A DNA stretch of 32,000 nt from Halomicrobium mukohataei DSM 12286 (GCF_000023965.1 NC_013202.1:1500001-1532000); one strand, 5' to 3'. Shown: positions 5,033 to 18,450, counted from the first letter of the stretch. Numbers and translations: made by a program. Notes: a model not told the origin generated them from the letters alone.

Positions 5033-5117
5033 TATAGTAGCCATCGAAAATCAATACACACCCGATCGCACGACAGCAGTGCGATCGGGTGTGTAAATCG
5101 TTTCAATTGTTACTATA
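5033..5117 (+). mobile_element. 85-bp self-complementary MITE-like element, copy A
   Basis: Sequence: TATAGTAGCCATCGAAAATCAATACACACCCGATCGCACGACAGCAGTGCGATCGGGTGTGTAAATCGTTTCAATTGTTACTATA. The termini are inverted (TATAGTA.C ... G.TACTATA). The core is a perfect 16-bp stem, ACACACCCGATCGCAC / GTGCGATCGGGTGTGT, around a 7-nt loop. The reverse complement of 18367-18450 is nearly identical. Confidence 0.8.
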
Positions 5118-5258
5118 ATACCTCGCGCTGGGAACGGCGTCGCTGGTTCTGGTGACTGGACTGAACTCCCTAGCGCGCAGGAAGTCGTCGCCGGCACCGC
5201 CGCGTCCGGGCTCGTCGTCGAGGCCCCGAACGACTACGTCAGCAGCTACACGGGGTGA
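5118..5258 (+). pseudogene. Possible 3' remnant of a disrupted gene abutting the MITE
   Basis: The frame is open from inside the element to TGA 5256-5258: ...PRAGNGVAGSGDWTELPSAQEVVAGTAASGLVVEAPNDYVSSYTG*. It has strong GC3 bias and acidic haloarchaeal-like composition but no start codon. It could equally be a chance open frame in GC-rich DNA. Confidence 0.2.
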
Positions 5259-5559
5259 TCCCGATGCGACTGGCTACCCTCATAGCTACGGGCTGGTCGG
5301 CGTCATCGCGGGTGTCCGCCTCGGGACAGGCCGGACGTGGCTCGTCGCTGTCGGAGTCTTGCCGGTGCAGCGTGTCGGCGGTCGCGCGCCGGCTCACAGC
5401 CACGTACCTCTGGCTAACGAGAACCGACAGAGGGCAGGGTGGCCAACTGGATTCCAGTGGCACTCGGATTTTATACGACTCTTCTCAGATCGCCAAGTGC
5501 GAGAATCCGAGCGTCTTCGAGGCTGTAATTGCGATTCCCCAGCGGTCAACGATCGTGCG

Positions 5560-5564
5560 AAAAA
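5560..5564 (-). terminator. Oligo-T tract (T5 on the minus strand) immediately 3' of tRNA-Ile
   Basis: The minus strand reads ...GGCCCA TTCG TTTTT. An oligo-T run a few nt after a tRNA is the usual archaeal termination signal. Confidence 0.45.
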
Positions 5565-5568
5565 CGAA

Positions 5569-5642
5569 TGGGCCGACGCGGATTTGAACCGCGAACCTCC
5601 CGGTTATCAGCCGAGCGCTCAACCTGATTGAGCTACCGGCCC
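5569..5642 (-). tRNA. tRNA-Ile (anticodon GAU)
   Basis: Minus strand: GGGCCGGTAGCTCAATCAGGTTGAGCGCTCGGCTGATAACCGGGAGGTTCGCGGTTCAAATCCGCGTCGGCCCA. It folds as a cloverleaf: acceptor GGGCCGG/TCGGCCC (one G-U), D stem GCTC/GAGC, anticodon stem CTCGG/CCGGG with loop CTGATAA, and T arm CGCGG-TTCAAAT-CCGCG. CCA is not encoded. Confidence 0.95.
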
Positions 5643-5762
5643 GAGCGAGTGCATCCGAGTGTACCCGAGGGGTACTGTTAAACGTTACTTTTCGGGGGCG
5701 GAGTGTGGGTCGACACCACGCCTGTCGTCGTTCCGTTGGGTCATTGTGTCACGATCGTCGCC

Positions 5763-5788
5763 GGGACGGAGTGGCGCGACTCCGTCCC
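5763..5788 (-). terminator. Perfect 10-bp hairpin 20 nt downstream of the fxsA-like stop
   Basis: GGGACGGAGT-ggcgcg-ACTCCGTCCC. It lies between the 3' end of the minus-strand gene (stop at 5808-5810) and the tRNA promoter region. Its function is inferred from position only. Confidence 0.3.
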
Positions 5789-16323: not shown

Positions 16324-16390
16324 CCGATCGGGACGCGGCGGTCCGACCGAACAACGGGGGTTTTTCAGCCTACCCGCCCTCCGCCCGAGT

Positions 16391-16930
16391 ATGACACGCG
16401 TCACGCTGGAGACCTCGAAGGGCGACATCGAACTGGAACTGTACGACGAGCGCGCACCACGTACCGTCGAGAACTTCCTCGGACTGGCCGAGCACGATCC
16501 CGCGGCCGACGCCGAGCCGGCACCGGACACGGCGACGTGGGAAGACCCCGAAAGCGGCGAGATCCGCGGCGACTCGCTGTACGAGGGCGTCGAGTTCCAC
16601 CGCGTCATCGAGGACTTCATGATCCAGACCGGCGATCCGACCGGCACCGGACGGGGCGGCCCCGGCTACCAGTTCGCCGACGAGTTCCACGACGAACTGC
16701 GCCACGACGAGGCCGGCAAGCTCTCGATGGCCAACAGCGGTCCGGACACGAACGGCTCGCAGTTCTTCATCACGCTCGACGCCCAGCCACACCTCGACGA
16801 CAAGCACGCCGTCTTCGGCGAGGTCGCGGAGGGAATGGACGTCGTCGAAGCGATCGGCAACGCCGACACGGACATGCACGACGGACCGACCACGCCGATC
16901 ACGATCGACGGCGTCGAGATCCACGACTGA
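16391..16930 (+). CDS. Cyclophilin-type peptidyl-prolyl cis-trans isomerase
   Basis: Motifs seen: VENFLGL, FHRVIEDFMIQTGDPTGTGRGGPGY.F.DEF, LSMANSGPDTNGSQFFIT, LDDKHAVFGEV. Confidence 0.9.
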   Translation: MTRVTLETSKGDIELELYDERAPRTVENFLGLAEHDPAADAEPAPDTATWEDPESGEIRGDSLYEGVEFHRVIEDFMIQTGDPTGTGRGGPGYQFADEFHDELRHDEAGKLSMANSGPDTNGSQFFITLDAQPHLDDKHAVFGEVAEGMDVVEAIGNADTDMHDGPTTPITIDGVEIHD

Positions 16931-16949
16931 TACGGAACGTTGTAGTTGC

Positions 16950-16990
16950 GTACCGGTGAGCGTCTACCCCGTGACAACGCTCACCGGTAC
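16950..16990 (+). terminator. Perfect 14-bp inverted repeat 20 nt downstream of the PPIase stop
   Basis: GTACCGGTGAGCGT-(13 nt)-ACGCTCACCGGTAC. A terminator or 3'-end structure is inferred from position. No adjacent T-tract is present. Confidence 0.35.
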
Positions 16991-17196
16991 ATTCCGACAA
17001 CCGTCCGTATGAGACGAACCGTACGACGCGTCCCGCGAGACCGTCGACGGCGACCCGGGAAACGGCAACTGTTCGTCCCACGTCGTTCGGCAACACGGGA
17101 CTGAACGGCGCTAGCGGGTCGCTGTCGTCGGACGCTCGCGTCTATTAACAACGGCTGTAGTATCGTATCCGTGGCTTGAAGTAGGAGGAATCGAGA

Positions 17197-18381
17197 GTGT
17201 TGCCCATGCTCGGGGACAAACGCGGCTATCAGTTGCTGTATTTCGTCTTCTTCGCTTCCTCGAACGGTTTCGTCGTCTTCCGGAACGCCTACTTCGAGGA
17301 ACTCGGACTGACCGGGGGGCAGATGGGGCTGTTGGGTGCGCTGCTCGTCGTCGGCGGGATGATCGCCCAGCCGATCTGGGGCGGCGTGGCCGATCGCTTC
17401 GCCGCCTCCAAACCGGTCCTGTTGATCGCGGCCGGGGTGTCGAGCGTGGCCGTTCTCGCCTTCCCGCTGGCCGGGCGCGTCCCCGATCCCTTCCTCTTGC
17501 TCGTGCTGGCGACGGCGCTGCTCTCGACGGTGCGGTCACCGATCGTTCCGATCACCAACGCGATGATCCTCTCCCGTGGCGTCGACTACGGACAGGTCCG
17601 GGCCTTCGGCTCGATCGCGTTCGGACTGGGGAGCCTCGTCATCGGGTGGCTGCTCTCGCGGTTCGCGACGGAGATCGTCTTCTACATCTACGCGGTCGGG
17701 ATGGTCGTGCTGATCCTGATCGTCCGCAGCGTGCCCGACGCCGACGCCGACCTGACGCCGGATCTCCGACGGGAGGCCGTCAAGCTCCTGCGCAACCGAC
17801 GGTTCCTGCTCTTGCTCGGCGTCGCGGTGCTGCTGGGTGGGGCCAGTTCCTCGGGCAGCGCCTACTTCTCGGTGTACGTTCGGGCGATCGGTGCGCCGGA
17901 CAGCCTCACGGGGACGGCGTGGATGGTCAAGACCGTCGGCGAGGCCGTCATCTTCCTCTCGATGGCCAAGATCGGGCTCGCCAACCGCACGCAGCTCTCG
18001 CTCGGTGCCGCCCTCTTTGCCGGCTGTTACCTCGTCTACGCCGCCGTGGGAACGGCGACGGCGATCATGGCGGTCCAGCTGGTGCTGGGCGTCGGGCTGG
18101 CGCTGTACAACCTCGCCGTCGTCGAGTTCGCCCACCGCTTCTCGCCCGACGAGCTGACCTCGACGGGACAGGCGGTGCTGTCGGCCTTCGGGATCGGGAC
18201 CGGGCGCGCGCTGGGACAACTGGGTGCCGGGAACGTGATGGACCTCGTGGGCGTCCAGTCGATGTACTTCGTGCTATCGGCGCTCGCGGCCGCCGCCCTC
18301 CTGTTGAGCCTGGGCTTTCACGGCCCGGCGTTGCGGCGGGTTGGCAACGCTGCCGGCGTCGGACGGTATAGTAACAATTGA
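17197..18381 (+). CDS. MFS transporter
   Basis: 394 aa with about 12 hydrophobic segments. The MFS loop motif reads GGVADRFAASKP. GTG 17197 is preceded by GGAGGA at 17184-17189; ATG 17206 is an alternative start. The final codons YSNN* are encoded by MITE copy B. Confidence 0.85.
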   Translation: MLPMLGDKRGYQLLYFVFFASSNGFVVFRNAYFEELGLTGGQMGLLGALLVVGGMIAQPIWGGVADRFAASKPVLLIAAGVSSVAVLAFPLAGRVPDPFLLLVLATALLSTVRSPIVPITNAMILSRGVDYGQVRAFGSIAFGLGSLVIGWLLSRFATEIVFYIYAVGMVVLILIVRSVPDADADLTPDLRREAVKLLRNRRFLLLLGVAVLLGGASSSGSAYFSVYVRAIGAPDSLTGTAWMVKTVGEAVIFLSMAKIGLANRTQLSLGAALFAGCYLVYAAVGTATAIMAVQLVLGVGLALYNLAVVEFAHRFSPDELTSTGQAVLSAFGIGTGRALGQLGAGNVMDLVGVQSMYFVLSALAAAALLLSLGFHGPALRRVGNAAGVGRYSNN

Positions 18382-18450
18382 AACGATTGACACACCGATC
18401 GCACTGCCGTCGTGCGATCGGGTGTGCATTGATTTTCAATGGCTACTATA
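18367..18450 (-). mobile_element. 84-bp self-complementary MITE-like element, copy B (inverted relative to copy A)
   Basis: The reverse complement is TATAGTAGCCATTGAAAATCAATGCACACCCGATCGCACGACGGCAGTGCGATCGGTGTGTCAATCGTTTCAATTGTTACTATA. By hand alignment it differs from copy A by 4 substitutions and a 1-nt deletion. Confidence 0.8.

Follow-up and report, generated by a model that had tools for sequence, protein, structure and literature searches.

Two inverted repeats at a Halomicrobium mukohataei locus belong to an 80-bp family of TA-duplicating miniature elements in Halobacteria, probably mobilized by ISHwa16-type IS630 transposases

The window analyzed here, a stretch of 32,000 nucleotides from Halomicrobium mukohataei DSM 12286 (NC_013202.1:1500001-1532000), contains two inverted copies of a short palindromic element, referred to as copies A and B, which lie 13.2 kb apart. 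Copy A is intergenic, between an open reading frame (ORF) for a 232-residue membrane protein (4218-4916, minus strand) and the gene for tRNA-Ile (5569-5642, minus strand), at the margin of a low-GC island. Copy B lies at the end of a gene for a major facilitator superfamily (MFS) transporter. As argued below, both are members of a family of transposable elements of the miniature inverted-repeat kind (MITEs) that are probably mobilized by the transposase of a larger insertion sequence (IS). The features are listed in window coordinates, the strand of copy A following the convention for that IS.

5033-5117, minus strand: copy A, comprising TA (5033-5034), an 81-bp element (5035-5115), and TA (5116-5117)
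5055-5095: central hairpin of copy A, a perfect 17-bp stem with two CGATCG sites and the 7-nt loop GACAGCA
17206-18381, plus strand: MFS transporter gene (Pfam MFS_1_like, E = 3.5e-45)
18367-18450, plus strand: copy B, comprising TA (18367-18368), an 80-bp element (18369-18448), and TA (18449-18450)
18390-18426: hairpin at the center of copy B, CACACCGATCGCAC / GTGCGATCGGGTGTG, which has a single bulged base and the 7-nt loop TGCCGTC

Read on the plus strand, copy A begins with an end resembling the right inverted repeat (IRR) of the IS, TAGTAGCC..., and closes with one resembling its left inverted repeat (IRL), ...GTTACTA, and copy B runs from an IRL-like end, TAGTAACAA..., to an IRR-like end, ...GGCTACTA. 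Alignment of copy A with the reverse complement of copy B gave 80 identical positions out of 85, with four substitutions and one 1-nt gap, in agreement with the first-pass annotation, which had reported this pair from a hand alignment. In a repeat search of the window, the pair was the longest inverted repeat (I1 and I9, 95-97% complementary), and the arms of copy A were detected as a separate inverted repeat (I6); these arms are 39 nt long and 79% complementary, and the terminal inverted repeats (TIRs) reach the very ends of the element. A 20-nt core pattern, CCGATCGCAC-N5-9-GTGCGATCGG, matched twice in the window and not once in 100 shuffles, so that the resemblance is indeed beyond chance, and a family profile (nhmmer) likewise found exactly two copies. 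Near full-length hairpins are predicted from both strands of both copies, with folding energies of -37 to -45 kcal/mol (z = -6.9 to -11.3), a stability that none of 200 shuffles reached for either copy. No ORF lies wholly within the 80 to 81 bp of the element, which agrees with the earlier statement that it lacks coding capacity.

The element is widely dispersed. A scan with the core pattern, using one genome per species, returned at least 120 loci and, among the matches listed, at least 77 full-length copies, 74 of which are distinct; the counts out of 77, 76, 74, and 68 copies given below all refer to these listed matches. Including its TA flanks, the element measures about 84 bp, and it was found in more than 15 genera of Halobacteria, among them Halomicrobium, Haloarcula, Natrinema, Natronococcus, Natronorubrum, Natronolimnohabitans, Haloarchaeobius, Halostella, Halopiger, Haloterrigena, and Natrarchaeobius, as well as in several metagenome-assembled genomes (MAGs). 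H. katesii DSM 19301 has at least 24 matches in 22 loci. A BLAST search of haloarchaeal plasmids located the element at 147 places on 47 records, none of which annotates a copy as a repeat or mobile element. The full-length consensus is TATAGTAGCCAyTGAAAGTCArTGCACACCCGATCGCAC-N7-GTGCGATCGGTGTGTAAAyCGTTTCArTTGTTACTATA. Mean pairwise identity amounts to 96% among 17 Halomicrobium copies and 87% overall, and the terminal seven pairs are kept in at least 65 of the 74 distinct copies. Copy A matches the Halomicrobium consensus at 81 of 85 positions and copy B at 83 of 84. The perfect stem of copy A results from an extra G, the family consensus being GG with a bulged C in nearly all 77 copies; the first-pass annotation, according to which copy B lacks one G, had this reversed, since it is copy B that follows the consensus.

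Divergent subfamilies lie outside the reach of the core pattern, as exemplified by a Natrialba magadii core, CTGATCACC...GGCGATCAG. Core matches from non-halophiles were rejected as chance palindromes: their alignment to the 84-nt consensus is confined to its middle, with scores of 34 to 48, compared with about 108 to 168 for all but one full-length copy. No copies were found in viruses (IMG/VR and GenBank phages), and no published name for the family was found in the literature, ISfinder lying outside the coverage. The window itself matches H. mukohataei: a "MULTISPECIES Halomicrobium" entry shares 100% identity with the MFS protein, and CP045142.1 is identical to the window over 12.4 kb.

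The center of the element varies. In approximately 8 of the 74 distinct copies (including those at loci L002, L004, L051, L069, L085, L097, L109, and L118), the 7-nt loop has the opposite orientation to the outer arms and reads AGCCGTC where the others have GACGGCT. As the 10-bp stem around it is perfectly palindromic, the loop may have been inverted in vivo when strands switched in a hairpin or cruciform. On the N. magadii plasmid pNMAG02 (L124; 10967-11090 and 41759-42175), two copies have normal arms and centers expanded to 120 bp and 416 bp, respectively. The larger center consists of tandem repeats of about 60 nt, similar to repeats on Natronorubrum and Natrialba plasmids. The idea that these two variants are deletion derivatives of an IS was ruled out, as their centers are tandem-repeat expansions.

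Filled and empty sites could be compared in three independent cases, and in all three the TA was duplicated, with a net gain of 82 bp that corresponds to an 80-bp element (TAGTARC...GYTACTA) plus the 2-bp duplication. The site of copy B is empty in Halomicrobium sp. IBSBa (L121), whereas H. katesii (L003) has an orthologous copy. The empty site of IBSBa reads ...GTCGGGCAG-TA-GCGTCCTGCGGG (GGGCAG-TA-GCGTCC), and the filled site of the window and H. katesii reads ...GTCGGACGG-TA-(TAGTAACAA...GGCTACTA)-TA-GCCTCCTGCGGG (in the window, GGACGG-TA-80 bp-TA-GCCTCC). In the second case, a single TA is empty in Halostella pelagica (L045) and filled in a MAG locus (L119). The third site lies at the left edge of the window.

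213-216: unoccupied CTAG target inside the terminal region of an IS5-family IS (window 1-228); in H. katesii (L135, 2253-2336) a copy is present there, with TA on both sides

This IS5-family end, GACGC-TA-GTAAGAG, is also empty in L127 and in the metagenome contig L136. For copy A, no empty site was found, all assemblies located being identical to the window there. A copy near position 500 of the H. katesii locus L003 was discarded as an empty-site case because it lies about 60 bp past a synteny breakpoint.

Of 76 copies, 57 have C before the first TA and 51 have G after the second. Reconstruction of the target gives CTAG for 36 of the 76; R is preferred at -2, and the preferred target can be written RC-TA-GY. 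This target is palindromic and is used in both orientations, insertion being orientation-neutral. Identical 163-bp composites, in which a second, unrelated MITE is nested within a family copy, occupy two different loci of H. katesii (L022 and L092), which shows that the whole composite was moved together via its outer termini. The first-pass annotation had favored a non-autonomous transposon and had proposed checks of copy number and target-site duplication. Its proposal holds up: the element is multi-copy (at least 77 full-length copies), dispersed, and polymorphic for presence or absence, and the TA at each end is a genuine target-site duplication, documented at three sites.

Protein and DNA alignment with homologues that lack the insertion showed that the TA in which copy B inserted was part of the TAG with which the MFS gene originally ended. 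The MFS ORF now extends 15 nt into copy B (TAT AGT AAC AAT TGA) and is four codons longer, its C terminus having changed from GVGQ to GVGRYSNN. Such positions are common in the family: about 27 of the 77 copies abut or enter a stop codon, and none of the 68 scorable copies lies inside a predicted gene (9 of the 77, at locus edges, were left out). The frame is set by the TAA or TAG stop, in both orientations giving TAT AGT ARC MAY TGA. Copies are found at gene ends and between genes because TA and CTAG are rare in DNA of 65-70% GC and mostly occur in intergenic sequence or in TAA and TAG stops; TA targeting in such DNA, followed by purifying selection, would account for the pattern. In the metagenome sequences L122 and L123 (4165-4690), from a relative with a 93%-identical MFS protein, the MFS stop is separated from a downstream ferredoxin-like gene by approximately 520 bp of unrelated sequence. 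The intergenic spot 3′ of the MFS gene, where copy B sits, may be an insertion hotspot.

The first-pass annotation had also suggested a search for a parent IS with matching inverted repeats, and ISHwa16-type elements of the IS630 family fit that description, with the same TA duplication and CTAG target. They were reached by a chain of tblastn searches leading from Tc1A (validated by its IS630 matches) through a cyanobacterial IS630 transposase to haloarchaeal plasmids, and ending at an "IS630-like element ISNamo16 family transposase" on pNMAG02. This IS is 1055 bp long and has two ORFs joined at an A7G slippery site (-1 frameshift), which encode a transposase with a DDE signature that includes YSPELNPVEE. 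It sits in the AAC-TA-GTT (CTAG) of one family MITE, with the duplicated TA on either side. The ISHwa16-type group occurs on 110 plasmid records, with the curator names ISNma5, ISNma6, and ISHvo16, and ISHsal9-11 in Halobacterium. ISHwa16 itself is a 1070-bp ISSod10-type element in Haloquadratum (PMC3119063).

We compared the ends of the MITE with both IS ends from Natrinema, Natronococcus, Haloterrigena, Haloferax volcanii pHV4, and Haloglomus, and with partial sets comprising only the right end from Haloarcula sinaiiensis and, clearly, the left end from Halorientalis.

Left end (IRL): IS, c-TA-TAGTAACCGTTAGAACTTT (C-TA-TAGTAACCGTTAGAAC...); MITE, TA-TAGTAACAAYTGAAAC
Right end (IRR, reverse complement): IS, c-TA-TAGTAG(n)C(r)TTAGAAAT; MITE, TA-TAGTAGCCAYTGAAA(G/A)T

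In most IS copies, the first 7 nt on the left and the first 6 to 7 nt on the right are identical to the MITE; over the whole ends compared, 12/16 positions agree on the left and up to 16/21 on the right. Both kinds of element have the same A/G asymmetry between left and right ends, so that the asymmetry of the MITE arms is most simply an inherited IRL/IRR difference of such an IS. The IS also produces the same TA duplication and has the same C...G flanks. In N. magadii, an ISHwa16-type transposase is carried on the same plasmid as the MITE, and both also occur in Natrinema, Natronococcus, Haloterrigena sp. H1, and Haloarchaeobius amylolyticus.

Other routes to a parent element gave nothing further. 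IS-sized TIR pairs in the 120 loci revealed no parent IS, the odd pairs being two MITEs or nested MITEs, and a de novo search for TA-flanked inverted repeats 600 to 2500 bp apart returned only other MITE pairs. Neither a regular expression for the IS630 motif YSPxLNPxE nor phmmer with Tc1 and Mos1 sequences found a transposase in about 1.3 Mb, and no IS630 is annotated in the parts covered of pNMAG02 and of the plasmid of H. mukohataei JP60 (150 kb). The IS5-family IS at the left edge of the window was considered as a partner owing to the TAGTAAG near its end and was rejected, as the likeness amounts to the CTAG target, which is empty there and filled in H. katesii.

Taken together, the element agrees with ISHwa16-type IS in its termini, its TA duplication, its CTAG target, and its arm asymmetry, and is therefore an IS630-class MITE. 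We consider it highly probable (roughly 0.9) that copies A and B belong to an 80-bp MITE family of Halobacteria that duplicates TA and is mobilized in trans by an ISHwa16-type IS630 transposase. By sequence, the family has what is expected of MITEs: it is short and non-coding, with TIRs, a target duplication, dispersed polymorphic copies, and TIRs and a duplication like those of an autonomous IS. Duplication of TA, with CTAG in 36 of 76 targets, likewise agrees with the IS630/Tc1-mariner group. In mechanistic terms, the arms would represent the left and right TIRs of an ISHwa16-type IS, joined with a GC-rich hairpin between them. Acting in trans, the transposase of such an IS, which is a DDE enzyme of the IS630/Tc1-mariner kind, would excise the element and paste it into a TA, preferably within RC-TA-GY (CTAG), the TA becoming duplicated on both sides of the inserted element. 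Surviving copies would then accumulate at gene ends, as copy B has done in the MFS stop codon. The assignment of the transposase to the ISHwa16-type group in particular is suggested by the shared ends, and cut-and-paste chemistry would be expected of an enzyme of this class.

Several points weigh against this interpretation. No transposition event was directly observed. The inner TIR differs from that of the sampled IS at 4 of 16 positions (AAYTGAAA versus CGTTAGAA), and both ends differ in the same manner (TGAA against TAGA, and two bases more); there may be a partner IS that is closer and was not sampled. Two metagenome scans for an IS630 element with a MITE-like inner TIR gave 0 matches and 1 spurious match, respectively. 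No ISHwa16-type transposase was found in the Halomicrobium sequence searched, which comprised the window, 22 loci from H. katesii, 100 kb from a plasmid of H. mukohataei, and the group's named members, but not whole chromosomes. Finally, the gene contexts of the copies come from a crude gene finder based on codon usage and GC content at third codon positions. The Halomicrobium copies are 96% identical, and their presence differs between close species. It is conceivable, if rather unlikely, that the family is active in Halomicrobium without a resident ISHwa16-type transposase and is moved there by an unrecognized or transiently acquired enzyme, in which case the conserved loop and the central CGCAC-N7-GTGCG hairpin, which recurs in one subtype of a second, 3-bp-duplicating MITE family, would be a functional module, for example a binding site for a host factor or transposase accessory.

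The strong predicted fold invites explanations in terms of RNA or single-stranded DNA. Were the element primarily a functional structured RNA or an RNA-level signal (a small RNA, an mRNA-stabilizing hairpin, or a terminator) spread by selection, one could understand why both strands fold very stably, why one orientation presents a strong hairpin followed by a T-run with a terminator-like score, and why many copies lie directly behind stop codons; three fixed G:T wobbles on one strand and one compensatory pair (12-73; CG in 45 copies, TA in 24) point the same way. Yet the orientation relative to the upstream gene is random (20 same, 19 opposite), mismatches from rare variants are strand-symmetric (G:T 29 versus A:C 25), and there is no Rfam match even at E <= 1, results that speak against the structured small RNA that the first-pass annotation had offered as an alternative. 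Moreover, descent explains the fixed asymmetries, which parallel those between IRL and IRR in the partner IS, and the targeting of TA in GC-rich DNA leads to copies at stop codons. The fixed G:T positions and the compensatory pair agree with descent in subfamilies and with a single transposase having to accept both ends. We therefore regard a primary RNA function as very unlikely; individual copies could have an incidental effect on transcript 3′ ends, with no sign of selection for such an effect. Movement of the palindrome as single-stranded DNA by a Y1 (HUH) transposase is still harder to uphold, whether as an element like repetitive extragenic palindromes (REPs) or bacterial interspersed mosaic elements (BIMEs) with a REP-associated tyrosine transposase (RAYT), or as an IS200/IS605-derived palindrome-associated transposable element (PATE). 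The palindrome is extreme, IS200/IS605/TnpB elements are plentiful in haloarchaea, the loop, flipped in about 8 of 74 copies, points to intermediates in hairpin or cruciform form, and one terminus has a nearby GTAG, as REPs do. Against this, TA is duplicated at three sites, the TIRs match the DDE-type IS630 group, and insertion is orientation-neutral into a target that is itself palindromic. Repeats of the PATE or REP/RAYT type would be expected to have subterminal hairpins and to insert strand-specifically beside a fixed short motif. IS200/IS605-derived PATEs and REP/RAYT families have neither a target duplication nor true terminal inverted repeats (PMC3119063), whereas the present element has TIRs to its very ends, duplicates TA, and uses both orientations.

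The arrangement of the two copies raises the question of a local inverted duplication through which the 13.2-kb segment would be switched by recombination or inversion. Two inverted repeats of 94% identity at this distance could physically undergo homologous recombination, and the first-pass annotation had mentioned inversion of the segment and had noted that a pair without relatives or a duplication pattern would favor local duplication. Instead, the copies belong to a family with about 100 or more sampled members in more than 15 genera and a TA duplication pattern, and 80 bp with five differences make a poor recombination substrate. IBSBa lacks copy B and has colinear surrounding genes; the window-identical sequences L127 and L128 (100% identity) keep the same arrangement across copy A, as H. 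katesii (L003) and IBSBa do across copy B, and no inversion was seen among these sequences. A switch is thus scarcely credible, and inversion of the segment remains theoretical. Copies A and B are independent insertions, and they differ in age, as seen from the larger number of private changes in copy A; that they bracket housekeeping genes, as the earlier annotation put it, is coincidental, and their inverted arrangement has no demonstrated consequence.

Among known systems, the ISHwa16-type IS (ISHwa16, ISNamo16, ISNma5/ISNma6, ISHvo16, ISNpe3, and ISHsal9-11) come closest to the MITE proposed here, with the same TA-TAGTAAC... and ...CTACTA-TA ends and many genera in common, down to the same replicon in the case of pNMAG02. 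They differ in being 1055 bp long with a two-ORF, frameshifted DDE transposase, whereas the MITE is 80 bp, non-coding, and has an unrelated GC-rich central hairpin; they also occur in Haloferax and Halorubrum, where no MITE copies were seen. Redder et al. reportedly described, in 2001, the mobilization of the Sulfolobus solfataricus MITE SM1 by the IS630-family element ISC1048. By description, SM1 is likewise archaeal, about 80 bp, and non-coding, with IS630-like TIRs and a TA duplication; it belongs to another phylum and its sequence is, as far as known, unrelated. The Correia elements of Neisseria, the enterobacterial ERIC and YPAL elements, and the plant Stowaway elements are also small, almost fully self-complementary, TA-duplicating, intergenic, and often co-transcribed. 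Their sequences and hosts are unrelated, and several have documented effects on mRNA processing or stability; for the haloarchaeal MITE, whose orientation is random, no effect of this kind is suggested.

TA-duplicating MITEs related to IS630 are well known in bacteria, eukaryotes, and Sulfolobus. For this family no published name was found, but its kind is already known, and nothing about it should surprise the field. Its value lies mainly in the annotation and comparative genomics of Halobacteria: well over 100 copies were sampled, all plasmid copies lack a repeat or mobile-element annotation, and gene ends are altered by copies, here by four codons added to an MFS transporter. Copies also mark recent insertions that separate close species, copy B being absent from IBSBa and present in H. 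katesii and H. mukohataei. The link to ISHwa16-type IS provides a testable transposase-substrate pair in a genetically tractable group, as Haloferax volcanii carries ISHvo16. Some of the "small mobile repeats" described as having neither a duplication nor a partner may in fact be MITEs of the IS630 type in which the TA had been assigned to the repeat. In Haloquadratum walsbyi, the small mobile repeat HqIRS41 is 79-80 bp long with inverted terminal repeats (ITRs) matching at 17/21 positions; it is recorded as producing no target duplication and as having ITRs unrelated to any transposon (PMC3119063). Compared by description, it resembles the MITE in size, prominent ITRs, lack of a transposase, and strain-specific insertions, and its host carries ISHwa16; should its TA have been included in the ITR, the two could be alike in kind. 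The family itself departs from the definition of a small mobile repeat in that TA is duplicated and its ITRs match ISHwa16-type IS.

The remaining observations concern neighboring features. The second MITE of the window lies upstream of the MFS gene.

16931-17009 (79 nt): second, unrelated palindromic MITE with ends TACGGAACGTTGTAG...CAACCGTCCGTA, flanked by TGA at 16928-16930 and 17010-17012

The first of these TGA triplets is the stop codon of a gene for a cyclophilin-type peptidyl-prolyl isomerase (16391-16930). Members of this second family are 79 to 80 bp long with TACGG...CCGTA ends, and identical TCA or TGA flanks in 17 of 17 strict copies indicate a 3-bp duplication. In several genomes, they are nested in the main family at aTTGAaac. 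The metagenome locus L122 resembles an empty site of the second MITE of the window, and IBSBa holds a short remnant of it. One subtype (e.g., L022, 3355-3434) has a hairpin, GACCGCAC-GCCGTC-GTGCGGTC, that is close to GATCGCAC-GACGGCA-GTGCGATC of the main family, while its termini and duplication length differ; this likeness could reflect a shared module or recombination between MITEs. A third palindromic repeat was seen in L078 (Natronolimnohabitans sp., 5107-6676), where a gene resembling zinc-dependent alcohol dehydrogenases lies between two inverted, TA-flanked palindromic repeats of about 90 bp with 24 of 25 matching end positions; gene and repeats may form a MITE-bounded composite.

The low-GC island occupies window positions 1-5000, with 46-55% GC compared with 65-70% elsewhere, and contains small ORFs and two paralogous radical S-adenosylmethionine genes (733-2004 and 2067-3365; 70% identical over 234 nt). 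It is bounded on the left by the end of the IS5-family IS (1-228; transposase DDE_Tnp_1) and on the right by copy A and the tRNA-Ile gene, and was probably acquired horizontally. Beyond copy B, a 6.4-kb operon for an Opp/Dpp-type ATP-binding cassette transporter (18882-25242; two ATPases, two permeases, and a binding protein) is missing from H. katesii (L003) and IBSBa (L121), which are otherwise colinear with the window there, and its right edge lies about 80 bp from a tRNA-Leu gene (25321-25405). Four independent short-read (Logan) contigs of this genome (L129-L132) end inside copy A (window 5089-5124) and two further contigs end at the IS5-family end (window 176-202), showing that these repeats break short-read assemblies.

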